DNA of 64,000 nucleotides from Veronia pacifica. GTDB taxonomy: Bacteria; Pseudomonadota; Gammaproteobacteria; Enterobacterales; Vibrionaceae. Shown here piece after piece: positions 15,662 through 55,178 of this stretch; positions within the stretch are counted from its first letter, which is position 1, and the number at the start of each line of letters is the position of its first letter. The notes under the pieces were generated by a model that did not search any database, had not been told where the DNA came from, and saw only the letters and a list, made by a program, of their open reading frames with translations. The stretch is from the NCBI RefSeq assembly GCF_001707825.1, contig NZ_LYBM01000003.1, positions 146,354-210,353 on the forward strand, given 5' to 3'. The position numbers and the translations under genes were made by a program.

Positions 15662-16606
15662 TTAGTATTTGCGAGAAGCGACAGTCTCTTTCGCATTTTC
15701 TCTGAGATGGATGAGGTCATCTTGTACCACCCATTTAGGTGCTTCTTTGCCCGCCAGCGCGAGTTCAACCTGATCAAAGGCCAAAGGTCCAAGCAAAGGG
15801 TTACACTCGACGGTGGCATTGAGGTCACCATCAATCATGGCCTCAAACGCCCCTTTCACCGCATCGACCGAAATCAGTTTGATGTCTTCACCGGGCACCA
15901 TACCGAAGTCTTTAATCGCCTGAATAGCACCCAGCGCCATGTCGTCATTGTGTGCGTACACAGCATCAATGTTGTTGCCATGTGCTTTGAGGAAAGCTTC
16001 CATGACTTCTTTACCTTTGGTGCGCGTAAACTCTCCATTTTGGGTAGCGATGATGTTGAGCTTAGGGAACAAATCGACAACTTCTTTGAATCCTTTCTGA
16101 CGGTCAATGGCTGCGCTTGCCCCGGTACTTCCCTGCAATTCGACGACCTTGCCCTGTCCATGAAGTGCTTGCGCTAACCAACTGCCTGCCAGACGTCCTT
16201 CAAAAATGAAATCAGAAGCAACCTTGGTGTAATAGAGGGAGTCGTCATCAACAGCAATGCCACGGTCAACAAGGATGACAGGGATTTTCGCTTTCTTTGC
16301 TTCGCGCAACACACGCTCCCAGCCTGTCTCTACGACAGGGGCGAGAATAATGGCGTCCACACCCTGTGCAATAAAGGAACGAATCGCTTTAATCTGATTC
16401 TCCTGTTTTTGCTGTGCATCAGAAAATTTGAGCGTATAGCCACGTTTCTGAGCCTCTTCTTTGATAGATTGCGTTTCCGCCGTCCTCCAAGAGCTTTCAG
16501 CCCCGATTTGGGCAAAGCCGACGGTGATTGCAAATGCCTTGAACGAGAACAACAGGGTGAAGACCGCTATGAACAGCAACCGTATGTACGACTTTTTTCC
16601 TGACAT
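15662..16606 (-). CDS. ytfQ: periplasmic sugar-binding protein, YtfQ-like (galactofuranose-binding family)
   Basis: Signal peptide MSGKKSYIRLLFIAVFTLLFSFKAFA. Periplasmic-binding-protein type I fold, collinear with E. coli YtfQ. Confidence 0.85.
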   Translation of the reverse strand: MSGKKSYIRLLFIAVFTLLFSFKAFAITVGFAQIGAESSWRTAETQSIKEEAQKRGYTLKFSDAQQKQENQIKAIRSFIAQGVDAIILAPVVETGWERVLREAKKAKIPVILVDRGIAVDDDSLYYTKVASDFIFEGRLAGSWLAQALHGQGKVVELQGSTGASAAIDRQKGFKEVVDLFPKLNIIATQNGEFTRTKGKEVMEAFLKAHGNNIDAVYAHNDDMALGAIQAIKDFGMVPGEDIKLISVDAVKGAFEAMIDGDLNATVECNPLLGPLAFDQVELALAGKEAPKWVVQDDLIHLRENAKETVASRKY

Positions 16607-17220
16607 TTTCGTCTCCTTGAAAATTGAGAACCTTTCTATTAGCCAACAAACTGCGTCAACTGGTGATTGTTTCGTTAACGCATCAACTATAGGTCTGCCA
16701 AAAATGTTTCACGTACTGGAAAATTAACCATCCGCCTGTCTTTTTGATTGATTCAGCAACAGTCGAAAAATCTGAGTGGATATTTAGTAAATAAAATCAG
16801 AGATCTAAGAGAGGAAAAAATACAGTGTCGCTTATTGATTGAACCCGCCAGATCAGCAGCCACCAAGGAATACACTGTACTGAAAAAAGACATGCCGCTA
16901 CTGAACGTTATTAATCAAAAAATCGATTGAATGAGCTGTTGATAGAGAACGAATATCCGGTGCTGGCTAACGTGACTGGAGCAAAGATGTAAGGGTGATC
17001 AAACTGTTATCAACACTTCTGGATACTGGAAAACGAGGCATCCTTAGCAATGGTCACTTGCCCGATCAGAGGCTCCAAACCGTGACATTCCTGTCAATGT
17101 GTATAATCCCTGATTAACCTGATCCGGCCTCGTTTTAGGTTTTATAGCCTCCAAATTTACAGTGAACAGCTTTATTTGGTTATCTGGTGAGCCAATGGCG
17201 ACACGAACAGATGCCGTCAC

Positions 17221-18780
17221 CTAGAACAAATCAAGATGCAGCCTGTTTTGTTCAACCAACATCTTGTATGTACCTGAATTGTCCTCACTGTTGTCTATCG
17301 ACAACGCATTCAGCATAGGCTCAATTTGACTGGCTAGGTTTTGCTTCCTTCCGCACACATAAACCTTTGCCCCCATGTCTATGAGCTCTCTAACAGCAGC
17401 ATGTTGTTGCCTCACCGAATCTTGCACGTAATGTTTGGTTTCTTGGTCGCGTGAGAAAGCAACAAAACAGTTTTGTAAGACTCCTGAGTCAAGCCAGTGC
17501 TTAATTTCATCACGGTAAACATAATCGACACTTTGGTGTTTTTCACCAAAGAACAAAATACAAGGTGCAGACGATTGGTGCTTCTCTCTGGATTGCAAAT
17601 ATCCTATGAAAGGCGCGATGCCAGCACCCGTGGCGATTAAGATACTGGGAGAGTTAACATCATAGTGAAAGCCGGGATTTGCACGTACGAAAAGAGGGAG
17701 GGTGTCACCAATATTGAGCGATTGTAGGTATGCTGTCGAACAGCCAGGTTTTGGCGAAGTACTTTCTGGATCGCTCCACACTTCTCTCACGCAAAGCTCT
17801 AACACGTCGGCATTTGCAAGCTGGCTTGATGCAATAGAATACGTTCTCGGTTCGATACCGGACAGAGCATCTGCAAATTCATTGATAGTCATGGTTCCCT
17901 CAGGATAAAAGTCCGTCAGAAAATCATTGAACTGATGCCTTTTCATGTAGTCATTCAATGCCACTTTATTCTTATACTTAAGTAAGGATTTTAAATCACT
18001 ATTAGGGAAAGCTGACGCTATTTTTCGCACTACTGCTTTGCTGATTCGAGCAATTTCTTTCTCTTTTAGCCATCTTTCTGCCTCTGCTACCGATACTCCA
18101 AAATAGTAAGCGAAGGGAGTAAGCAATGGCTCGGTATTGCACGGCTTTAGGTGAACGATATCTCCCGGTTGATAACGGATACCGCTATTTTTGATACATA
18201 TCCGGATACGATATAAGCTCGGAAATGTGCCAGATATCTTGGTGGCAGAAAGTAGAGGTGCGGAGAACAGAGCATTTTCGCCATAGGAAGACACGGATAT
18301 ATTCAGCGCTTCCCCTGCACGCAGATCGCCTTTCAGAAGGACGGCTTTCAACACCGTTTTCCACTCTTCAAATAACACACGGTAACTTAAGTCTGCATCC
18401 ACACGATTGATCAGGCGTCGGGCACCGTTTGCTGAAAGCGCACTGTCGAGACTTTTACTGAAGCCACAAAAGTTAGGATATGCTGTATCACCCAGTCCAA
18501 AAACAGCAAAAGGGAACAAGAGAGGCTGAGAGATTTCCTGAAACGATTGCCAGAAGTATTCTGCGTTACTCGGTGGTTCTCCGTCACCAAACGAACTGGA
18601 AATAAAAGCGGTAAATGTGTCATCTTTCAATTCCGTTGGGTCAAACTCATCCAACGCTTTGAGAGTAATAGTAAAATTATTAGCGAGTTCGCTGTCAGAA
18701 GAGAGCTGGCGCGCCAGCTCTTTTGCATTTCCCGACACAGACCCGTATACAACGTATATGTTGCGAATAACAGGTTGCAT
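17221..18780 (-). CDS. diflavin reductase (flavodoxin-like FMN domain plus FAD/NAD(P)-binding ferredoxin-reductase domain; CysJ/CPR-like)
   Basis: N-terminal flavodoxin motifs (VYGSVSGNAKE; FGLGDTAYPNFC). RTYSIASS FAD motif. ILIATGAGIAPFIGYLQ NADP motif. Confidence 0.8.
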   Translation of the reverse strand: MQPVIRNIYVVYGSVSGNAKELARQLSSDSELANNFTITLKALDEFDPTELKDDTFTAFISSSFGDGEPPSNAEYFWQSFQEISQPLLFPFAVFGLGDTAYPNFCGFSKSLDSALSANGARRLINRVDADLSYRVLFEEWKTVLKAVLLKGDLRAGEALNISVSSYGENALFSAPLLSATKISGTFPSLYRIRICIKNSGIRYQPGDIVHLKPCNTEPLLTPFAYYFGVSVAEAERWLKEKEIARISKAVVRKIASAFPNSDLKSLLKYKNKVALNDYMKRHQFNDFLTDFYPEGTMTINEFADALSGIEPRTYSIASSQLANADVLELCVREVWSDPESTSPKPGCSTAYLQSLNIGDTLPLFVRANPGFHYDVNSPSILIATGAGIAPFIGYLQSREKHQSSAPCILFFGEKHQSVDYVYRDEIKHWLDSGVLQNCFVAFSRDQETKHYVQDSVRQQHAAVRELIDMGAKVYVCGRKQNLASQIEPMLNALSIDNSEDNSGTYKMLVEQNRLHLDLF

Positions 18781-18782
18781 AT

Positions 18783-19211
18783 TTACGCTTCCTCATAATA
18801 CTCGTCGAAGACTTCTTTCGAGAATTCAACAGATTCATAATCTGCCAATAAATCATTGATTACGCGCCTAACACTGATGTACTCAGTGATCTCCCCTGCT
18901 TCATTGAATATGGGGTGTACCGTGGTATCAACCACATAAATCTCACCATTTTTGCCTTTATTGGGTATTATGCCAGTCCAGATTTTCCCTGCTTTGATGG
19001 TATCCCACATGTTTTTGTATACTTCTTTTGGTACTTGTTCCACACGGACCAGATTGTGAGGCTGACCGATCAACTCATTTTCCTCATACCCAGTAAGCTG
19101 ACAAAATAATGAATTCACATAGGTGATATTACCTTCCAGATCGGTTTTAGAAATTACCAGCGCATTTTGAACAGCTGTCATAATTTGGTCATTGAGGCTT
19201 TGTTGGCTCAT
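18783..19211 (-). CDS. stand-alone PAS domain protein
   Basis: 142-aa ORF with a PAS fold pattern (NITYVNSLFCQLTGYEENELIGQ…GEIYVVDTTVHPI). Its stop is 2 nt from the reductase ATG. Confidence 0.7.
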   Translation of the reverse strand: MSQQSLNDQIMTAVQNALVISKTDLEGNITYVNSLFCQLTGYEENELIGQPHNLVRVEQVPKEVYKNMWDTIKAGKIWTGIIPNKGKNGEIYVVDTTVHPIFNEAGEITEYISVRRVINDLLADYESVEFSKEVFDEYYEEA

Positions 19212-19982
19212 TACTCATTCCCTTTATTGATAATGGTTATCACTTAGATTAATAAAGATGTATTTGAGATGCAACTTATAAAATGATGTAAATCTGTATG
19301 TACTTGATGCGCGGAATGACATCTCACATTTAGACATTATTTACTGATAATTATATATTTATTGAGATCGCTGAGTGTATTAATGGAGTAATTCACACAT
19401 TTTTCTCGATAGTTTTTTCGCAAAAGTAAGTACCTTTATCACTCTCTGGACTTCATCTTTCTTCGGCTGATGTAAGGCGATACTCGCTGTCGGTGGATAG
19501 ATGGGATCTTGAGACATGATGCAAAACTATTTATCTCCATTGAAGAGTATGACGTGATAAAAAATGCTTATAAAAGTGTCGAATTAAATCTCTATAAACC
19601 AAAAAATCAGAAGAAGCTTGAATTAAAAGGGGTTGTAAATTAACTGTTATTATTCAATTTTCAAATAAAAAATTAGTTAATATTAAGATATAGATAAATA
19701 CTTTCCTAAATATCTAGACATCTATTAATGAAAATTCGGATAAATTATAAAAAACAAATAACTTTTATAGTGTGGCATATATTAGTTTTTATAAAACTAA
19801 TAGCATTAATCTTTTTAAACATAAAGTTTATTCTCATAAATAAAGCACTTACTCATAATAACCTGCCATATTTTATTTATGTTTAACAATGAATCAAATA
19901 AGGATAATTATTTTATGAAATAAAAATCATATAATAATTAATTCAACCCAAAATATGAATATATTAATCAAGGAGTAATAAA

Positions 19983-20738
19983 TTGAAAGTTACATGCTTT
20001 ATTTTAAAAAAATTATTTTTTTATTTGTCAGGTTTTATTTTTTTGTTAGGAGTAAATATGAGTGCAAACGCAACAGCAGATAATCAGGTACGAGCGAGTT
20101 ACATTCAATTAACCGCCCAATCTGGTAAAGAAACAGATTTAGCAGATTTCCTTGGTGTTGGTGCTCAGTTAGTCAGTGACACAGAACCTGAGACTTTATT
20201 GTGGTCAGCTCTTCAATCACAAGACAAGAAGACATTGGTTATTTTTGATACCTTCGGGTCTCAGGCTGCTCAAGATGCTCACTTCTCTGGGAAAATCCCA
20301 GAAGCTCTGAGTAGCAAAGCACATGACTTAGTTCAGGGTGGATGGAATAAAGGGGTTGTTCCGAATATAAATAATGCTGATATCATTGCATTTAAAACCA
20401 CGCCCGACGCTGTAAGTAATGTCAAAATTGCTACCTTTATTCCTCTTACTGCTAAGGCTGGTCAAGAAGAAAACCTTGCTAATTTTTTGAAGCAAGGTGC
20501 TCAGATTGTTAAGGATAATGAGCCAGACACACTACATTGGTTTGCTATTCATTTTGGTCAGAACAAATTCGGAATCGTCGATTTTTTCCCGAATCAAGCG
20601 GCTGTTGATCATCATTTTGCAGGTGGCGTAGCTCAGGCCATGCAACAACACGCTGCAACCCTCGTTGAGGGTGGTTGGGAAAACGGTGTTGTCGCTGGAA
20701 TCCAAGCTTTTAGCGTCATTGAGTTTATTAAGCGTTAG
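19983..20738 (+). CDS. tandem ABM (antibiotic biosynthesis monooxygenase-like) domain protein with a predicted N-terminal signal peptide
   Basis: Two ~95-aa ABM-like repeats. A TTG start at 19983 has aggag 7 nt upstream and gives a Sec-type signal ending SANA|TADN. An alternative ATG at 20058 also has aggag. Confidence 0.6.
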   Translation: MKVTCFILKKLFFYLSGFIFLLGVNMSANATADNQVRASYIQLTAQSGKETDLADFLGVGAQLVSDTEPETLLWSALQSQDKKTLVIFDTFGSQAAQDAHFSGKIPEALSSKAHDLVQGGWNKGVVPNINNADIIAFKTTPDAVSNVKIATFIPLTAKAGQEENLANFLKQGAQIVKDNEPDTLHWFAIHFGQNKFGIVDFFPNQAAVDHHFAGGVAQAMQQHAATLVEGGWENGVVAGIQAFSVIEFIKR

Positions 20739-20874: not shown

Positions 20875-22617
20875 TCATGGCGTTGTCACATCAGCTGAAT
20901 TCAGCTTCCAACCATGTGCCTGACGTTCAGCGTTCCACAAAGAATGATAAAGGCCTTGGCTATCGTAGAGTGTCTGATGCTTCCCACGCTCAACAATCAC
21001 ACCATCCTCCAGGACCAAAATCTGGTCAGCATGAACGATGGTACCGAGACGATGGGCGATGATGATCACAGTCTTATTTTCGATGAGCGTACTGAGTGCC
21101 TGTTGAATTTCGTACTCGTTTTCTGGATCGAGTGATGCTGTTGCCTCGTCCAGCAAGACAATTGGAGCATCTTTCAGTACCGCTCTGGCAATAGATAAAC
21201 GTTGTTTTTCCCCGCCGGATAGCGACGCCCCCGCTTCACCGATCACAGTGTCCAGACCATCTGGCAATTGGCAGATAAAGTCCCAGCAACAGGTTGCTTT
21301 ACATACCATCTCTACGCGCTCTCTATCTGGATCCGATATACCTAACGTTAGGTTATTAAAAATGGTGTCCTGAAACAGATAGACATCCTGAAATACCAGA
21401 CTGATATGGTCAGCGAGACATTCGGCGGTCAGATTTTTTATCGGGGTATCACCCATTAATATCTGCCCTTCTGTGGCGTCCCAAAAACGTGCAATCAAGC
21501 TGGTTATTGTTGTCTTTCCGCTACCAGACGGACCGACTAATGCCGTCAGGGTACCCGGTTCACAGCGAAAACTGACTGACCGCAACACGGGTCTGTCTGC
21601 ATATGTGAAACTGACCTTGTCGAATTCGATGCTGGGTTCGAGATCTAAGACTTGTTGACCCTCTGGTAATTCTGGCGCGGAAAGCACGTCTTCAATGCGG
21701 TTCGCAGCCTGCTGCATAAAACTGTATTCCGCAAGGAACATTGCCAGCGCAACCAAGGGCCTGAAAAATCGGCTGGAGACAATCAAAAACAACACCGCAA
21801 CATGGGGCTGTAACTCTCCACCTACATACAGATATACCAAGGTGAGCAGCATGGTCGCGAAACCCAGCTCAACTAGAGTGATAAAACTGAGTGGTGCCAC
21901 GCCAGCCAAAAACTCGTGCTTCAAGCTCATTCTCTGAATCCCTTTTAACTGATCATCCAGTTTTGAGAAACGCTTGCCAGCGAGGTTGTAGGCTTTCAGT
22001 AATTTGATCGAGAGAATGTATTCCATCAATGAGCCAGTCATTTCGGCGACTTTGTCCAGTAACTTCCTACTCAACAAAGCACCGGCTTTTTTGAGTGCAA
22101 TGAACACCACAATGGCCAGAGGCAAACCGATACACATCGCCACACTTAACCGCCAGTCTTCGACGGTCAGCCCTATCACTACCAGTGCTACCAGACTGGT
22201 AGTCACGATTAACTGAGAAAATAAGTGTGAATAGATTTGCTCAGTGAAAGTTACATCTTGCAGCATAGTCGCATTCAGGCGGCCGGGGTCCACTTTGAGT
22301 AAGTAGCCCATAGGGACTTTCTTTAGCTTTGAGGCGAGGTTGCGTCGTATATCGAGTCCAGCGTCGTATCCAAGGCCATGATTACTGACCATTACGTGGC
22401 GGGCGACGACTACACGCACCGCAAACAGCAACGTCATTATGCCGCAACACGTCCATATGTACGCGAAGTCTGGCACAGCAGAAAACATCTCTTTTATCAC
22501 CAAATAAACAAAGACAAAGGGAATTCCGACTAACAGTGCTTCGATGAAACCCAACAGGATATTTTGGGCCAATCCTTCGTTTTGCTTTCCGGTGAGAACT
22601 TTCATTTGATTAAGCAT
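20875..22617 (-). CDS. ABC transporter fused permease/ATP-binding protein, second subunit of a heterodimer (YbtQ/IrtB-like)
   Basis: Six-TM region plus NBD (GPSGSGKTT, LSGGEKQRLSIARA, IVLLDEATSALD). Start set at MLNQMKV, 2 nt after the upstream stop. The longer in-frame ORF to 22734 would overlap the upstream gene. Confidence 0.8.
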   Translation of the reverse strand: MLNQMKVLTGKQNEGLAQNILLGFIEALLVGIPFVFVYLVIKEMFSAVPDFAYIWTCCGIMTLLFAVRVVVARHVMVSNHGLGYDAGLDIRRNLASKLKKVPMGYLLKVDPGRLNATMLQDVTFTEQIYSHLFSQLIVTTSLVALVVIGLTVEDWRLSVAMCIGLPLAIVVFIALKKAGALLSRKLLDKVAEMTGSLMEYILSIKLLKAYNLAGKRFSKLDDQLKGIQRMSLKHEFLAGVAPLSFITLVELGFATMLLTLVYLYVGGELQPHVAVLFLIVSSRFFRPLVALAMFLAEYSFMQQAANRIEDVLSAPELPEGQQVLDLEPSIEFDKVSFTYADRPVLRSVSFRCEPGTLTALVGPSGSGKTTITSLIARFWDATEGQILMGDTPIKNLTAECLADHISLVFQDVYLFQDTIFNNLTLGISDPDRERVEMVCKATCCWDFICQLPDGLDTVIGEAGASLSGGEKQRLSIARAVLKDAPIVLLDEATASLDPENEYEIQQALSTLIENKTVIIIAHRLGTIVHADQILVLEDGVIVERGKHQTLYDSQGLYHSLWNAERQAHGWKLNSADVTTP

Positions 22618-24382
22618 CGGCAGGCTCCCTTTCCTTTGTTGACACATTCCATTCACGAGACGCCTGATGCGATTGCCACATACTTTGGTAAACCGGGCAT
22701 GCCTGGACGAGCGCTTCATGCGTGCCATGGCCAACCAGAGCGCCTTTGTCCATCACAAGGATTGAATCAGCATCCACAATGGTGGAGAGTCGGTGGGCAA
22801 TCACGATCACGGTTTTATCTTTGATGAGTGAAGATAACGCTGACTGAATTAAGGCTTGGTTGTTCGCATCCGCAAATGCCGTTGCCTCATCCAGAATGAG
22901 AATGGGTGCATCCTTTAACATCGCACGGGCAATCGCTAAACGTTGTTTTTCACCGCCACTGAGAAAGACACCCTCTCCCAGTATGGTTTGATAGCCATGT
23001 GGCAACGCCATAATAAACTCGTGTGCCTGAGCGGCTTTGGCGGCATGAACGACTCTATCCTCTGATGCATCGCTACCCATGGCGATATTGTCATATACAG
23101 TTTGGCTCAGAATGATGCTTTCTTGAAAAACATACGCGGTATTTTCCATCAGATAAGGCGTGGATAATGAGGTGATTGGTTTTCCGCCAATCAAAATATC
23201 ACCCTGTTCAATATCCCAGAATCTTGCCACCAGCATTGCCAGCGTTGATTTTCCTGAACCTGAGGGGCCGACAACAGCGTTCAATGTTCCTTGCTTGAGG
23301 GAGAAAGAAACATTATCAAGTGCCAGACGCGACGTATCATCATAGCGAAAGCTGACCTTGTCGAACTCGATACCAAACTCTGAAAGCGTTTCGCTTTTAT
23401 CAGGCTCGGATAAAGGGGGACGACTTATCAACGCTTGTAACCGGTTCACCCCCTCAAAAATCTGATTGAGGTATGCCGTAAACATGGTCAGGTTATACAA
23501 CGGCTCCATCATACCGACACCAAGCAAAATACAAAGAGTGAAGCTGGCAATATCAAGCGTTCCCTGAGACCAGAAGTAAACCCCAAGGGGAAGCAACACC
23601 ACTAATCCACTATCCAATAGCGTCTTAAACGCAGCAAATGGCCAACCCGCCTCCTTCGTCCACTGCACCACCACATGATGGTAGTGACTCAAACTGGCCG
23701 TGAACAACTTGTGTGGCCTTCCGCCAGCGTTAAATGCCCTGATCACCGGCATTGCGCGCACATATTCGGTAATACTGGTATTCAGGCTCTCCAGTGCATC
23801 ATGGTAGTGACGAGATTTTTCCTCGAATCCTTTGTACATCGACATTTGACTGAAAATAGCCAGAGGGATAGGGATTAATGCCGCCAATGCCATTCGCACA
23901 TCAATAAACAGCAGAAATATAAAAACAGCGAAGGGGGTGATCAGCGATGTCACGAAATCAGAAATATGGTGCGCAACAAACAACTCAACGCGATCAATAT
24001 CTTCAGATAGGATCTTCTTGATCTCACCAGAACTTTTCTGGCTGAAAAATCCCATTGGTAACCGAGCCATATGCCCCAGTGCCAGAGTGCGAATGTTATA
24101 CTGAATCGCAAACGCAGACTTATGAGACAGCATAATCGCAATAAACAGTAAGGCGTATCGGGCTACCATAAAACATAGTGCCAGCGCCGCCCACTGCCAC
24201 ACTTGTGAGGCATCAAACCGGGGACTTAAAAGTTGCTCGAGAACAAGATACGCAAAGTAGAAAGGTGCAAGCGCACATAAGGCACTCGCAGCAGACATGA
24301 TGATTGATAAGACAAGCTTTATTTTATGCTCAGCTGAGACGTCAAACAGCCATCGCAAGCTTGCCACTGATTCCTTGTTCAT
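22610..24382 (-). CDS. ABC transporter fused permease/ATP-binding protein, first subunit of a heterodimer (YbtP/IrtA-like)
   Basis: TM domain plus NBD (GPSGSGKSTL, LSGGEKQRLAIARA, ILILDEATAFAD). Confidence 0.82.
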   Translation of the reverse strand: MNKESVASLRWLFDVSAEHKIKLVLSIIMSAASALCALAPFYFAYLVLEQLLSPRFDASQVWQWAALALCFMVARYALLFIAIMLSHKSAFAIQYNIRTLALGHMARLPMGFFSQKSSGEIKKILSEDIDRVELFVAHHISDFVTSLITPFAVFIFLLFIDVRMALAALIPIPLAIFSQMSMYKGFEEKSRHYHDALESLNTSITEYVRAMPVIRAFNAGGRPHKLFTASLSHYHHVVVQWTKEAGWPFAAFKTLLDSGLVVLLPLGVYFWSQGTLDIASFTLCILLGVGMMEPLYNLTMFTAYLNQIFEGVNRLQALISRPPLSEPDKSETLSEFGIEFDKVSFRYDDTSRLALDNVSFSLKQGTLNAVVGPSGSGKSTLAMLVARFWDIEQGDILIGGKPITSLSTPYLMENTAYVFQESIILSQTVYDNIAMGSDASEDRVVHAAKAAQAHEFIMALPHGYQTILGEGVFLSGGEKQRLAIARAMLKDAPILILDEATAFADANNQALIQSALSSLIKDKTVIVIAHRLSTIVDADSILVMDKGALVGHGTHEALVQACPVYQSMWQSHQASREWNVSTKEREPADA

Positions 24383-24530
24383 TCAGTTCCCTCTTATTTT
24401 CCAGATTGGTTCGATTTTGACTGACTGGAAAATAAGAACTACTCAAGGAGGGATAAAATTTATGCGGCACGGATTGGCGCACCCCCACAGCTATTTACAC
24501 TTGCCATCATGAGCAAGGTTACAGGAGGTG

Positions 24531-25517
24531 TCATTGGGTCAATTTCAGATATGCGCTTGGTGTAATGCCAAAATATTTTCTGAATGCCACCGAGAAGTGA
24601 CCATGATTTTGGTAGCCCACTTCACTGGCAGCAGTAATAATCTGACCTCGTTGCTCAAGCAGGATTGTGCGGGCTTTCTCCATCCGCTGTCGATGTAAAC
24701 AACCAAAAGCGGTTTGATTAAATACCTCTTTAAAACCTTGTTTTAGCTTAAAATCGTTCAAACCAACTTCACGAGCAAGTTCAATCAACGACGGTGGCGA
24801 TTCCATTCGGTCAAATAAAATCTCCCTGGCACGGTGAATCTTGCTAATGTCCGCCCTACTCATCCTCCCTGAGCACCGGGGTTTAGGTATCAGTGCTTCC
24901 AATGCTAGTGATATTAGCTGCCAACCCAAATCACGGTATTTCAGGGTATCTGATAACCTCTCAGACGAGCAGAACATCATTTGGTGAGCAATTGCAGTCA
25001 TCTCTTCTGTGCTCTCCACGACATGAAAAAAAGACCGGGGTATATTGAGAAAGGCAGGTGACAAGAGGCGCTCTAATGCTTTGCACTGATAGTTCTCAAT
25101 GAGGGATTGAACAGACTCCAGAGACACATTAACAGAAACCCCTTTAAAACTAGCAGCCTGCGCCCTGGTGTAGCCAGATACATCCTCAGCAAAGTAGATA
25201 ATCACCTTGTTAGGCGAGAGCAAAATACGCTGACCAATAGACTGCATGTAACATTCGCAGCAATCGCCCAAACTCACAAAGATCTTTAACTCTCTCGGAG
25301 AAAATCCGTCACTGCTGTACATCTCGACGCGGCGATTAAAATTGCCATCTATTGTGACTGCATTGATGCCATGATCAAGGCCATACTGGTTGAGTCTGAA
25401 CATACCAAATGACGCATCCAAGCCATAGAAGCCCGTATCGTCGACGGCATTGAACATCTCATCGTGGTCGAACTGAAAGCGGTAGAAATCATCCATGTTA
25501 TTGAGAGTGATTATCAT
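24531..25517 (-). CDS. AraC-family transcriptional regulator (YbtA/PchR-like, siderophore-system type)
   Basis: C-terminal AraC HTH (…AASEVGYQNHGHFSVAFRKYFGITPSAY). It heads the two ABC genes, and a Fur-box-like sequence overlaps its start. Confidence 0.75.
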   Translation of the reverse strand: MIITLNNMDDFYRFQFDHDEMFNAVDDTGFYGLDASFGMFRLNQYGLDHGINAVTIDGNFNRRVEMYSSDGFSPRELKIFVSLGDCCECYMQSIGQRILLSPNKVIIYFAEDVSGYTRAQAASFKGVSVNVSLESVQSLIENYQCKALERLLSPAFLNIPRSFFHVVESTEEMTAIAHQMMFCSSERLSDTLKYRDLGWQLISLALEALIPKPRCSGRMSRADISKIHRAREILFDRMESPPSLIELAREVGLNDFKLKQGFKEVFNQTAFGCLHRQRMEKARTILLEQRGQIITAASEVGYQNHGHFSVAFRKYFGITPSAYLKLTQ

Positions 25518-25537
25518 TAAAATCTGAGATTATCACT
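25501..25537 (-). promoter_or_regulatory. candidate Fur box(es)
   Basis: The minus strand reads AGTGATAATCTCAGATTTTAATGATAATCACTC. The core TAATGATAATCAC matches the Fur consensus GATAATGATAATCATTATC. Confidence 0.5.
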
Positions 25538-25714
25538 CCGCGTCTTTTAGAAACAAGATAAAAATCCACTTTAAAAACCTCTTGTGGATCTTGGTCTCTT
25601 TTCAACTGAATATTAAACACGGGGTGTTTTTAATTATTTATTTCAGGCAAATACCGATTTCACTTGGCATTTTCACACCCCACAAAGGCTTCTACTTTAG
25701 ATATACGATCTCAC

Positions 25715-26968
25715 TCAACACTTCACCGATGGCAAATCCTTCCAACGGGTAGTGTATTGAGGCGATAGAAACTCTCTTCGCATTCCCCACTTTGGTGTAA
25801 TTCCCTGTGCCGCCAAAAAAACCGTACCTTTGCCATAGCGATGATTCAGCCCATCAAATGCTTTCATTAGTGCTGGGTTTCCGGGCTGTTCATCAAACAA
25901 GTCAGGCTGGATATGTTCTGCACTTGCCAAATCTAAGAGTCCAACCCCGACTTTGTAATATTTCACCCCCGACTCGAAGAGCAAAGGAATCAGGTCAGAC
26001 ACAGCGCGGGTGATCACTGCCGTATCGTCGACAGCAAAAGCAAAACGGTGCAACTGTTTAAAGCTTTTAGGGTTGTCGTCATAAGGGGAATTACCCGCGA
26101 ATACCATCAACACCGAGCACACTGACTTTTGTGCCCGTAACTTGGCTGCAGCTATGCCTGCATGCTTACACAAAGCCTGATGTAACGAGACTTCATCTAC
26201 GATTCGCTGTCCCATTGAGCGAGTAGAGAAAATCTGCTGTTTATCAGCACGGGATACGTCCCAACCTTTGCAGACCTCACCGTTGAGTTCACGAACTGTG
26301 CGCTCCATTTCCACATTAAACTCACGACGCATCAGCGCGGGTTTCTGCCGCGACAAAGACAGGGCAGTTTCAATACCTTGCCTCTTGAGCCGCACAGAGA
26401 TTCGGCGGCCAACACCCCAGACATCCTCTACCGCCATCTGCTCCAGGATAGAGAGACGTTGTGACTCCGAATCAAGCACACAGACACCGTCAAACCCCGC
26501 CATTTTTTTTGCCGCATGATTAGCCACTTTGGCCAGCGTCAGAGTCGGCCCCATCCCTACCCCTACTGCCAGCCGACACTCTTTCCAAACCGCCCGACGC
26601 AGGGCCTTTGCGTGTTCTTGTAAATGTGGAATGGCACTGCAGCGGTGAAAAGAAAGAAACGATTCATCAATGGAATACACATGCTGATCCGGTGCAAAAC
26701 GACCGATCACCTGCATCATCTTGTCCGACAAATCACCATACAGTTCATAATTTGACGAACAAACAACCACAGAATTCGCCCGGCAAAGCGCTTGGACCTG
26801 AAAAAAGGGTTTGAATTTCTCTACGCCTATTTCTTTTGCCTGACGGTTGGCAGCCACGACACAACCATCGTTGTTTGATAGCACGACCATTGGTTTTCCT
26901 CGCCAGTCCGGGCGAAAAACCTGCTCGGCACTGCAGTAAAATGCATTGGCATCGACTAGCGCGAACAT
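25715..26968 (-). CDS. umuC: DNA polymerase V catalytic subunit (Y-family)
   Basis: Collinear with E. coli UmuC from MFALVDANAFY through SPQYTTRW. Confidence 0.93.
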   Translation of the reverse strand: MFALVDANAFYCSAEQVFRPDWRGKPMVVLSNNDGCVVAANRQAKEIGVEKFKPFFQVQALCRANSVVVCSSNYELYGDLSDKMMQVIGRFAPDQHVYSIDESFLSFHRCSAIPHLQEHAKALRRAVWKECRLAVGVGMGPTLTLAKVANHAAKKMAGFDGVCVLDSESQRLSILEQMAVEDVWGVGRRISVRLKRQGIETALSLSRQKPALMRREFNVEMERTVRELNGEVCKGWDVSRADKQQIFSTRSMGQRIVDEVSLHQALCKHAGIAAAKLRAQKSVCSVLMVFAGNSPYDDNPKSFKQLHRFAFAVDDTAVITRAVSDLIPLLFESGVKYYKVGVGLLDLASAEHIQPDLFDEQPGNPALMKAFDGLNHRYGKGTVFLAAQGITPKWGMRREFLSPQYTTRWKDLPSVKC

Positions 26969-27363
26969 AGCAACGGGCTCTCACGGTGGCAACGGACAGA
27001 GCGCACGACAACCCCCTCGATGGTAAATGTGTCATGTCGGGTGATTTGTACCGATGTATAGCCGTCGTTGGCAGACAGTAAAAGCCGATGTGTCATATCC
27101 AGCAGTTTGCAAACAAACTCGCCATTGAAGTTAGCTACGATCACGTCTCCATCGCGTGCGCTAACATGCCTGTCAACGATAAGGATATCGCCATCGAAGA
27201 TACCCACCCCCTGCATTGACTCGCCTGACGCACGGCCAATAAAGGTGGCACTGGGATGCTCGACGAGAAGTTCATCAAGGCTTAATGGCAGCTGACGGTA
27301 ATCACCAGCTGGTGATTCGAAACCAGTGATTCCTGCACTGGCAAAAATTGGGATAATATTCAT
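26956..27363 (-). CDS. umuD: DNA polymerase V accessory subunit, LexA-like S24 autopeptidase
   Basis: 135 aa with the S24 serine motif GESM and a Lys dyad. Overlaps umuC by 13 nt. Confidence 0.9.
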   Translation of the reverse strand: MNIIPIFASAGITGFESPAGDYRQLPLSLDELLVEHPSATFIGRASGESMQGVGIFDGDILIVDRHVSARDGDVIVANFNGEFVCKLLDMTHRLLLSANDGYTSVQITRHDTFTIEGVVVRSVRCHRESPLLCSR

Positions 27364-54089: not shown

Positions 54090-54584
54090 TAATCTTTGAC
54101 CAAACAACATTATAACTGATCAACTCTAGGGTTCTGCCCAAGGGGTTTTATCATTTATACGTTGGTAAAAATAGGCTGACCCACGGGGCGTGGTTTTAGA
54201 AAATCATTGCCTCGACCAGTATTAAAAAAATAAAATTTATTCCTCAGCCTACTGCTCATGATATGTATCCATACAATATTTTATATTAATCATTATTTTA
54301 GACCTATTTTTAAAAAATATTCAATATATATTAGTAAGGTTATCTTTCAATAAATCCTAGCGATTTTTATTACATAAATAACTAAAAATAATATTATTTT
54401 ATATTTTCACTTTTCAAAATAATAATTTATTCTGCTATTTATAAAATATTAAATATCATAGTAATGATTTTTTTGATATGTATCGCAGTTAATTATCCCC
54501 TATGTGTTTCTCTGTCGGATGATGTAGTAATCATATTCACTCCGTTAAACGAGGTACTTAATCGTCCAAATTACTTCTTCATTA

Positions 54585-55178
54585 TTGGTTGAGGTTGTCA
54601 TTACAGTCAAAGGAATAGTATTGAGCAGTCGAGAAATAGATTTATCCCACTTACCCCTTCAGCAACAACTTGTCGAATCTGCATGTAGAGCATTCGAAAA
54701 TATCCCAGATGTCATTGCTGCTGTATTGGTCGGCTCTCTCGCAGCTGGCAAAGGGGACAGAGTCTCAGACGCTGATATTGTTATATTTACCCAAAATAGC
54801 TTCCACAAAAAATCAGCCCCCTTCTTTTCAGCTTTTGAATCTGAGAAAGATATTTTTTACTGCCTTGATGGTTTTCATACTGAAGATGCTTATTTCAAAA
54901 AATATATATTCCATGATTTTACTAGTATCGAAATTCATTGCCTTGACCTCAAGGAGCCATTTGAACTCTGTCACCCGTTCAAGGTATTGTTTAATAAAAC
55001 AGGGATGGTCAAAGAGAGAATTACTGATCAGCCTGCGCCTAAACATCAAGATTTTGAGGCTTACACACATGGTGATAAGGGTATTGTTTGGGAACTTTTT
55101 GACTGTATAAAGTGGCTAAGCCGTGATGATACTGAATTAGCCAAAAGTCATCTGAAAAAGCTTGCCGCAAAAATGTAA
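54585..55178 (+). CDS. nucleotidyltransferase-domain protein (Pol-beta superfamily; antibiotic-NTase-like or MNT-like)
   Basis: NTase signature VGSLAAGKGDRVSDADIVIF. About 38% GC versus about 45% for the flanks. The start is uncertain (TTG 54585, no clear RBS). Confidence 0.55.
   Translation: MVEVVITVKGIVLSSREIDLSHLPLQQQLVESACRAFENIPDVIAAVLVGSLAAGKGDRVSDADIVIFTQNSFHKKSAPFFSAFESEKDIFYCLDGFHTEDAYFKKYIFHDFTSIEIHCLDLKEPFELCHPFKVLFNKTGMVKERITDQPAPKHQDFEAYTHGDKGIVWELFDCIKWLSRDDTELAKSHLKKLAAKM

Follow-up and report, generated by a model that had tools for sequence, protein, structure and literature searches.

A conserved gene pair of a stand-alone PAS protein and a diflavin reductase in Veronia pacifica, with putative nitric oxide- and iron-responsive control sites

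We analyzed a 64,000-nucleotide (nt) stretch of Veronia pacifica DNA (hereafter the window; mean GC content 45.2%), and focused on two neighboring genes that encode a stand-alone PAS protein and a diflavin reductase. For each of the two proteins, the databases contain a Veronia pacifica (Vibrionaceae) entry of 100% identity. The adjacency of these two genes across bacteria is far beyond chance. The PAS protein is predicted from its sequence and modeled structure to be a free-standing, flavin adenine dinucleotide (FAD)-binding PAS protein of the Aer/MmoS/NifL type, and the pair appears to be switched on by nitric oxide (NO)- or iron-sensing repressors. Both kinds of protein are well known; what appears to be new is their obligate and widespread pairing, under apparent NsrR/FNR/Fur-type control. 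A literature search found no functional description of the pair, the only relevant paper being a transcriptome study of Stenotrophomonas maltophilia (PMC7688217), and databases label the two genes generically or wrongly. The pair is laid out in the window as follows:

18783-19211, minus strand: PAS protein gene, 142 amino acids (aa); from the open reading frame (ORF) listing and Pfam
17221-18780, minus strand: diflavin reductase gene, 519 aa; from the ORF listing and Pfam
18778-18794, minus strand: coupling junction, with a Shine-Dalgarno (SD) sequence inside the end of the PAS coding region, the PAS stop codon, 2 nt and the reductase ATG; read from the sequence
19219-19223, minus strand: SD sequence of the PAS gene, AGGGA, 7 nt before its ATG; read from the sequence

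The PAS and reductase genes form a conserved, tightly spaced pair

The PAS stop codon (TAA, 18785-18783) is followed by two nucleotides (18782-18781) and then by the reductase start codon (ATG, 18780-18778), and the SD sequence of the reductase, GAGGA at 18794-18790, lies 9 nt before this ATG within the 3' end of the PAS coding region. ORFs and sequence therefore confirm an earlier, sequence-only reading of this DNA, according to which the 142-aa PAS ORF ends 2 nt before the ATG of the 519-aa reductase, and the 2-nt gap together with a downstream SD sequence inside the upstream ORF identifies the two genes as a translationally coupled operon. Across 85 loci in which the distance from PAS stop to reductase start could be measured reliably (four further loci were left out as start-picking artefacts), this distance is -4 nt in 22 loci, -1 nt in three, +2 to +11 nt in 40, 17-27 nt in seven, and 58-112 nt in 13, the last group falling mainly in Pasteurellaceae, Alteromonas and Psychrobacter. 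With 65 of the 85 gaps between -4 and +11 nt but 13 at 58-112 nt, coupling is common, not universal.

Scanning one genome per species with the PAS family alignment gave 80 loci from Gamma-, Beta- and Alphaproteobacteria and Cyanobacteria. A reductase homolog lies directly downstream of the PAS gene, on the same strand, in 79 of them, and in the single exception the contig ends 200 nt past the PAS gene. Looking in the other direction, from reductase homologs in Stenotrophomonas (S. maltophilia), Pseudomonas, Serratia, an Aliirhizobium plasmid, Pectobacterium, Paenirhodobacter and Lautropia, we found the PAS gene directly upstream in 7/7 cases, although on the Aliirhizobium plasmid it is present but uncalled in the annotation. 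These counts, along with the tight gaps, bear out the earlier proposal that the PAS protein and the reductase are a functional pair. Chance adjacency was considered and rejected, since the gene order is kept in loci from other taxa, and we regard it as effectively excluded.

Clustering of flanking ORFs in 38 dereplicated taxa recovered only three recurrent families: the PAS protein, the reductase, and an Rrf2-family regulator (12 taxa). Other neighbors are unrelated between taxa, for instance citrate lyase in Bibersteinia and glycogen genes in Stenotrophomonas. Pairwise identity matrices of the PAS and reductase proteins co-vary (Mantel r 0.77, 0/2000 permutations), a pattern that fits inheritance and transfer of the two genes as one unit.

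The PAS protein carries the flavin-contact residues of Aer, MmoS and NifL

The PAS protein matches the Pfam families PAS, PAS_3 and PAS_9 (E 4e-13). Its best sequence matches in the Protein Data Bank (PDB) are MmoS (3ewk, 1e-31), Aer (8dik, 1.5e-25) and PAS1 of NifL (2gj3, 2e-19), and its best NCBIfam match is the N-terminal PAS domain of NifL. We modeled the protein with AlphaFold (AF2) from the family alignment; the model has a mean predicted local distance difference test (pLDDT) score of 92.7 and comprises an N-cap helix (residues 3-17), a PAS core and a C-terminal helix (residues 125-140). Foldseek comparisons place 8dik, 9qq6, 2gj3 and 3ewk, representing Aer, NifL and MmoS, at the top of the matches, each with a probability of 1.00, followed by short LOV proteins that share the helix-core-helix layout. 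Pfam, the AF2 model and Foldseek thus agree on a PAS fold.

In Aer, H53 stacks on the isoalloxazine ring of FAD, N85 hydrogen-bonds to N3/O4, R115 is positioned at N5, the pyrophosphate is contacted by R57 and the adenine by W70 and M69, and G28 is also noted (PMC9668731). Aer residues H53, R57, M69, W70, N85, R115 and G28 align to H52, R56, M68, W69, N84, R115 and G27 of the Veronia PAS protein, and all of these are invariant in a 22-sequence family alignment. The adduct-forming cysteine of LOV domains (motif GXNCRFLQ) is absent: the Veronia protein reads GQPHNLVR, with His52 in place of the cysteine. Since H53 of Aer aligns with the LOV cysteine position (PMC9668731), the sequence-only reading was right that the protein lacks a LOV cysteine and is not a photosensor, a role that can be effectively excluded. 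Judged by this alignment, a histidine at that position is the signature of the Aer/MmoS/NifL FAD subfamily. A haem-binding PAS protein was rejected as the primary reading, since no flavin or adenine contact has been lost and FAD-PAS domains are its nearest relatives.

Members of the family are stand-alone proteins of ~140 aa that share 63-85% identity across Gamma-, Beta- and Alphaproteobacteria and marine Cyanobacteria. The earlier reading had suggested a check for N-terminal fusions of the PAS domain to homologous reductases, and this check turned up none: the top PAS matches are 138-172 aa long, and the top reductases, at 503-533 aa, lack a PAS domain. A search of representative proteins with the PAS sequence returned mostly multi-PAS signaling proteins, the family itself being collapsed to one 143-aa representative, and gave no single-stretch match of fusion strength among the matches listed, which is weak evidence against fusions.

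Two PAS homologs come from assemblies labeled 'Bacillus subtilis' and 'Nocardiopsis yanglingensis'. Both are 63-64% identical to the Veronia protein, like those of the Stenotrophomonas loci, and the match coordinates of the second are identical to those of Stenotrophomonas loci. These are probably contaminating contigs in assemblies of Gram-positive bacteria.

The reductase has a CysJ-type architecture without an adjacent sulfite reductase partner gene

The 519-aa protein matches Flavodoxin_1 (6e-23), FAD_binding_1 and NAD_binding_1 in Pfam, and so carries a flavodoxin-like flavin mononucleotide (FMN) domain, a connecting/FAD domain and an NADPH domain in one chain, the arrangement that defines a diflavin reductase. 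Across the 38 taxa, the best-conserved columns correspond to the motifs YGSxSGNA, SSFGDGEPP, GLGD, RxYSIAS, GxGIAPF, SRD, YVQD and YVCG; the Veronia protein has RTYSIAS in its FAD site and GAGIAPF, SRD, YVQD and YVCG in its NADPH site. The stretch SRDQETKHYVQ resembles the site that binds the NADPH 2'-phosphate in cytochrome P450 reductase. Three Pfam domains and intact cofactor motifs bear out the previous assignment of a CysJ/cytochrome P450 reductase-type flavodoxin-FNR reductase.

Several observations could suggest that this protein is a true assimilatory CysJ and the PAS gene an unrelated neighbor. Its best NCBIfam family is cysJ (TIGR01931, 2.6e-90), its closest PDB match is the sulfite reductase flavoprotein SiRFP (6efv, 3.5e-53), followed by cytochrome P450 reductases, and several sources name its homologs 'sulfite reductase flavoprotein subunit alpha'. 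The match to TIGR01931, however, reaches 303.7 bits, far short of the cut-off of 668.15, and that to PRK10953 223.9 bits against a cut-off of 838. The TIGR01931 alignment begins at position 60 of 597, leaving model positions 1-59 unmatched, which indicates that the N-terminal (oligomerization) region of CysJ is absent. Moreover, no CysI-like hemoprotein gene is adjacent to the pair in the 38 taxa or present in the 64-kb window, while the PAS gene is obligately adjacent. We consider a true CysJ effectively excluded.

In Bibersteinia trehalosi (CP146202.1, 8505-10058), the reductase is not annotated, yet the region gives a full-length tblastn match (query residues 3-519); the gene may have been annotated as a pseudogene or missed.

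Putative operators and linked regulators upstream of the pair

Two candidate regulatory sites lie upstream of the PAS gene:

19257-19275, read on the minus strand: NsrR-type operator palindrome, 46-64 nt upstream of the PAS ATG; consensus match
19223-19247, core on the minus strand: Fur-box-like element, between the NsrR-type box and the PAS ribosome-binding site

The first site reads GTTGCAT-CTCAA-ATACATC on the minus strand (AAGTTGCATCTCAAATACATCTT with flanks). It matches 13 of the 14 positions of the NsrR consensus gATGyAT-N5-ATrCATc (Rodionov et al. 2005, PMC1274295). No other site in the window matches as well; one other reaches at least 12/14, as compared with 0.76 expected from shuffled sequence. 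V. nigripulchritudo, V. penaeicida and isolate HQB-39 have NsrR-type boxes at the corresponding position; both the strength of the match and its conservation in related genomes mark 19257-19275 as a putative NsrR operator. In a survey of regulatory signals across 44 dereplicated taxa, 16 have NsrR-type boxes ahead of the PAS gene, 13 have an Rrf2 gene within the locus, and 22 have one or the other. The Rrf2 gene is divergent from the pair in Kerstersia, Lampropedia, Alteromonas, Psychrobacter and an Actinobacillus metagenome-assembled genome (MAG); in four cyanobacterial MAGs and one gammaproteobacterial MAG it lies directly upstream on the same strand. The best NCBIfam match of these Rrf2 proteins is NsrR in 6/8 and RirA in 2/8.

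The second element contains the core GATAACCATTATC on the minus strand (19241-19229) and matches 14 of 19 positions of GATAATGATAATCATTATC; at the same position, V. nigripulchritudo matches 14/19 and V. penaeicida 16/19, against a background of about one match per 2.9 kb at 13/19 or better. Similar boxes are also found in Serratia and Aggregatibacter. The 13/19 threshold is of low specificity, and we regard the Fur-box assignment at 19223-19247 as tentative.

A third type of site, the FNR/Dnr-type box TTGAY-N4-RTCAA (background one per 7.9 kb), is present in 8 further taxa, including all Stenotrophomonas loci (for example TTGACCAATGTCAA in S. maltophilia) and several Pasteurellaceae, a family reported to lack NsrR (Rodionov et al. 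2005, PMC1274295). Taken at face value, these sites place the PAS-reductase pair under different NO-, O2- or Fe-S-sensing regulators in different lineages. NsrR-type sites in some lineages and FNR/Dnr-type sites in others are the regulatory pattern that was used to define the NO regulon (Rodionov et al. 2005, PMC1274295); nitrosative-stress genes, hcp-hcr, dnrN and nnrS among them, are defined by such varied control.

Two Pseudomonas loci (L026 and L086) have neither NsrR- nor FNR-type boxes and instead carry repeated AGTC-N5-GACT palindromes (GAGTCATTTAGACT, GAGTCATTGCGACT and TAGTCAATAAGACTA) ~100-200 nt upstream of the PAS gene, which suggests a different regulator.

The AT-rich spacer lies largely outside the conserved module

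Upstream of the PAS gene lies a 771-bp spacer (19212-19982) with a GC content of 25.8%, as compared with 45.2% for the window, shared with a divergent gene that encodes a protein with an ABM-like domain. The sequence-only reading had described an AT-rich spacer of ~770 bp in this arrangement, which the coordinates and composition uphold, and had further taken it to look like an H-NS-type silenced or heavily regulated promoter, which comparison with other loci does not support. Only ~60 bp beside the PAS gene (19221-19280) are conserved, at 83-86% identity, in V. nigripulchritudo and V. penaeicida, and this short stretch holds both the NsrR-type box and the Fur-like element, which we take as the conserved control element in place of an H-NS-regulated tract. 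Beyond it, the spacer shows no similarity in tblastx or blastn to any of 98 fetched loci.

19281-19982, no strand: lineage-specific AT-rich remainder, outside the conserved module; includes a GC-richer island and a tract of 19% GC

We considered the possibility that the operon is a horizontally acquired, H-NS-silenced locus controlled by this AT-rich tract. The spacer holds the lowest GC content in the window (18-20% across 19560-19982, 19.4% overall), and the genomic surroundings of the pair differ among Vibrionaceae, suggesting mobility. Against this, the tract is missing from every other locus, the PAS and reductase genes themselves have a GC content of 40-45%, close to the window mean, and the most extreme AT tract abuts the divergent ABM gene rather than the PAS gene. 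A promoter and terminator scan found no more promoter-like sites than in shuffled sequence, and no terminator. We therefore judge silencing by H-NS improbable, and on these comparisons the AT-rich tract is specific to Veronia and not a feature of the PAS-reductase module.

Within the spacer, a GC-richer island of 138 bp (19380-19517) reaches 39.9% GC, as against ~20-29% in its flanks. RNA folding of 19370-19570 on both strands gave z-scores of -0.4 and -0.5, hence no structural signal, and an Rfam scan of 16500-20200 returned no match. The island contains an uncalled 45-aa ORF on the minus strand (19380-19517; MSQDPIYPPTASIALHQPKK...). On the other side of the pair, 614 bp (16607-17220) separate the reductase stop from a sugar-ABC binding-protein gene, with no gene or terminator-like structure; this gap contains a 58-aa ORF with a GTG start that abuts the reductase stop, and shows no similarity in tblastx or blastn to any of the fetched loci. 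As neither ORF is found in the protein collection by exact look-up, both are probably spurious, and the lack of matches to the spacer or to the downstream gap in the fetched loci gives no evidence of a gene remnant.

The pair is among the most strongly induced genes in S. maltophilia biofilms

In biofilms of seven S. maltophilia isolates, adjacent genes annotated as 'PAS sensor' and 'sulfite reductase flavoprotein' were among the 8 most strongly and commonly induced, with log2 fold changes of 9.3 and 6.8, respectively (PMC7688217). They were co-induced with iron-uptake genes (hemP and TonB receptors), and in 4/7 strains with nitrate-reduction genes (PMC7688217). The authors of that study read the induction of the reductase as sulfate/sulfite assimilation (PMC7688217); from its homology, we identify the induced gene as the PAS-linked diflavin reductase, not cysJ. 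With NO/Fe-S-responsive operators predicted in many lineages and this top-ranking induction in S. maltophilia, the pair is probably a real, abundant component of the stress response that is now mis-annotated as 'sulfite reductase'.

A proposed model for a flavin-based redox pair

The conserved pairing and tight coupling of the two genes, the conservation of the cofactor site and operator, and the linkage to Rrf2 genes are observed directly in the loci compared here. Building on these, we think it probable that the PAS protein and the reductase work as an effector and its redox partner. We favor this effector/partner reading because of the strong inducibility of the pair, the lack of any further gene conserved beside it, and the parallel with Hcp-Hcr, NorV-NorW and Hmp. 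Since the PAS protein belongs by prediction to the FAD-binding Aer/MmoS/NifL type, a three-flavin chain describes the pair better than a generic sensor with an enzyme does.

In such a chain, the reductase would accept hydride from NADPH onto its FAD and pass single electrons on to FMN, and the FMN domain would then reduce the FAD of the PAS protein. The chain would end at the PAS protein, the dedicated redox partner of the reductase. Potentials of about -290 mV are within reach of a CysJ-type FMN hydroquinone. For the FAD of Aer and of MmoS, the potential is ~ -290 mV (PMC9668731). The Veronia operon would be repressed through the NsrR-type operator, which overlaps the promoter region, and possibly by Fur too, and we propose that it would be made once NO or a shortage of iron or Fe-S clusters removes the repressor's cluster. 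The module would then serve, free of metals and driven by NADPH, as a low-potential one-electron carrier or as a terminal reductase, supplied at the moment when haem and Fe-S carriers are disabled, with NO, O2, Fe(III) or a protein target as candidate final acceptors. In its full form, as a metal-free three-flavin system of the nitrosative or iron-limitation stress response with a free Aer-type PAS-FAD protein as its working end, this model is possible, and we put it forward tentatively.

A rather unlikely but coherent alternative is that PAS-FAD is a regulatory subunit: a redox, O2 or NO sensor that gates the reductase or uses it only for reset, with something else as the reductase's real acceptor (such as a haem oxygenase, a P450, a ferric siderophore or free flavin). 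As a sensor, PAS-FAD would act in its reduced or oxidized state on the reductase or on another protein. The PAS-FAD domains of Aer, NifL and MmoS are all signaling modules, and the N- and C-terminal helices of the PAS model resemble those of short LOV signaling proteins. Stand-alone PAS proteins with partners are also known: one modulates a flavin reductase in Lactobacillus johnsonii (LjPAS-FRedA/B; PMC4500961), and a stand-alone FAD-PAS protein signals through a partner in CetB2/CetA2 (PMC12442639). In both Veronia and Serratia, moreover, the pair lies beside ABC transporters. Weighing on the other side, no third partner gene is conserved beside the pair in the 38 taxa, and the PAS gene is very strongly induced and among the top expressed in S. 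maltophilia biofilms, which fits an effector better than a sensor. Stoichiometric coupling suits a subunit or a substrate equally, and so does not discriminate between the two models.

Several points weigh against the effector/partner reading and the stress-response model built on it. FAD binding, complex formation and electron transfer are all predictions from sequence, and no detoxification route is established in which flavins alone act on NO. The PAS protein is much more conserved than the reductase (mean pairwise identity 69% versus 43%), so that the main constraint on it could come from a partner other than the reductase. On the side of regulation, the calling of NsrR-type sites relied on a published consensus and an arbitrarily chosen cut-off, and the window contains no nsrR gene. 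The adjacent Rrf2 proteins score below the NsrR and RirA equivalog cut-offs, for which reason we call them NsrR/RirA-like. Finally, 14 of the 44 taxa show none of the three signals (NsrR-type box, Rrf2 gene or FNR/Dnr-type box), among them four Pseudomonas taxa, the Methylomonas/Methylococcales loci and some Pasteurellaceae.

Relationship to known systems

The Veronia PAS protein shares its fold and 32-47% identity with the PAS domains of E. coli Aer, Methylococcus capsulatus MmoS and Azotobacter vinelandii NifL (PAS1), along with a His on the isoalloxazine, an Asn to N3/O4, an Arg near N5, an Arg to the pyrophosphate and a Trp at the adenine. Those domains sit in large proteins (a chemoreceptor, a histidine kinase and an anti-activator, respectively), whereas the Veronia-type PAS stands alone at 142 aa, lacks an output domain, is obligately accompanied by an NADPH reductase of its own, and has a family-specific conserved C-terminal helix (RRVINDLM.DF.SVEFSKE.FDEYY). 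The reductase has the same three domains and the same FMN, FAD and NADPH motifs as CysJ/SiRFP, cytochrome P450 reductase and the reductase domain of nitric oxide synthase, with SiRFP the closest. It differs from CysJ in lacking the N-terminal region and a haem/sirohaem partner gene; its implied acceptor would instead be a flavoprotein, PAS-FAD.

Like the pair described here, Hcp-Hcr, NorV-NorW and Hmp combine a cofactor protein with a dedicated NAD(P)H reductase and are preceded by NsrR-type operators in some lineages and FNR/Dnr-type sites in others. They use a hybrid cluster, a di-iron center and haem, whereas the PAS-reductase module is predicted to be flavin-only. LjPAS-FRedA/B likewise comprises a stand-alone PAS protein with a separate partner, a flavin reductase that LjPAS modulates, but this partner is a heterodimeric FMN reductase unrelated to the diflavin reductase, and LjPAS-reductase domain fusions have been reported (PMC4500961) while we found none for the Veronia-type PAS. 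In the split FAD-PAS receptors of the CetB/CetA type, a stand-alone PAS protein also has a partner, with CetB signaling to a chemoreceptor. Unlike CetB, the PAS-reductase module also occurs in Pasteurellaceae, which are generally regarded as non-motile.

Work on Aer left its physiological redox partners unidentified, naming only 'an unknown oxidant' (PMC9668731). A sensor-type PAS-FAD protein that is hard-wired, as we predict, to a dedicated NADPH reductase across a broad span of bacteria bears on how Aer, NifL and MmoS receive electrons. If the effector reading is true, the pair could be the first flavin-only enzyme to act on NO, an NO-derived substrate or an iron substrate. If the sensor reading is true, the reductase could be the first genetically identified physiological reductase of an Aer/NifL/MmoS-type PAS-FAD sensor, and the pair would offer a tractable system in which to study the reduction of these sensors in vivo.

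Flanking genes in the window

The gene divergent from the PAS gene is absent from all other PAS-reductase loci in the flanking-ORF clustering:

19983-20738, plus strand: ABM gene, 251 aa; sub-threshold Pfam ABM match, divergent from the PAS gene

It starts with TTG, preceded by AAGGAG, and is annotated by NCBI as 'putative quinol monooxygenase'. The Pfam ABM match, at 22.3 bits against a threshold of 23.1, falls on the second half of the protein, and its sequence suggests two ABM-like halves in tandem. The protein begins with a segment resembling a Sec signal (…LLGVNMSANA|TAD), and a secreted ABM protein would be unusual. Its 90%-identity cluster contains three sequences only, the named ones from Veronia.

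Beyond the ABM gene, the minus strand at 20875-27363 carries two genes for exporter-fold ABC half-transporters (619 and 590 aa), whose ORF calls overlap by 125 nt, followed by a gene for an AraC-type regulator and then by umuD/umuC-like genes. At 25503-25521, where the AraC gene starts, there is a Fur-box-like site (15/19). We take this layout of ABC half-transporters and an AraC-type regulator to recall siderophore uptake loci of the YbtA-YbtPQ type. Farther along the window, positions 54100-54650 form its second-lowest GC tract, at ~24-25% over 400-nt windows.

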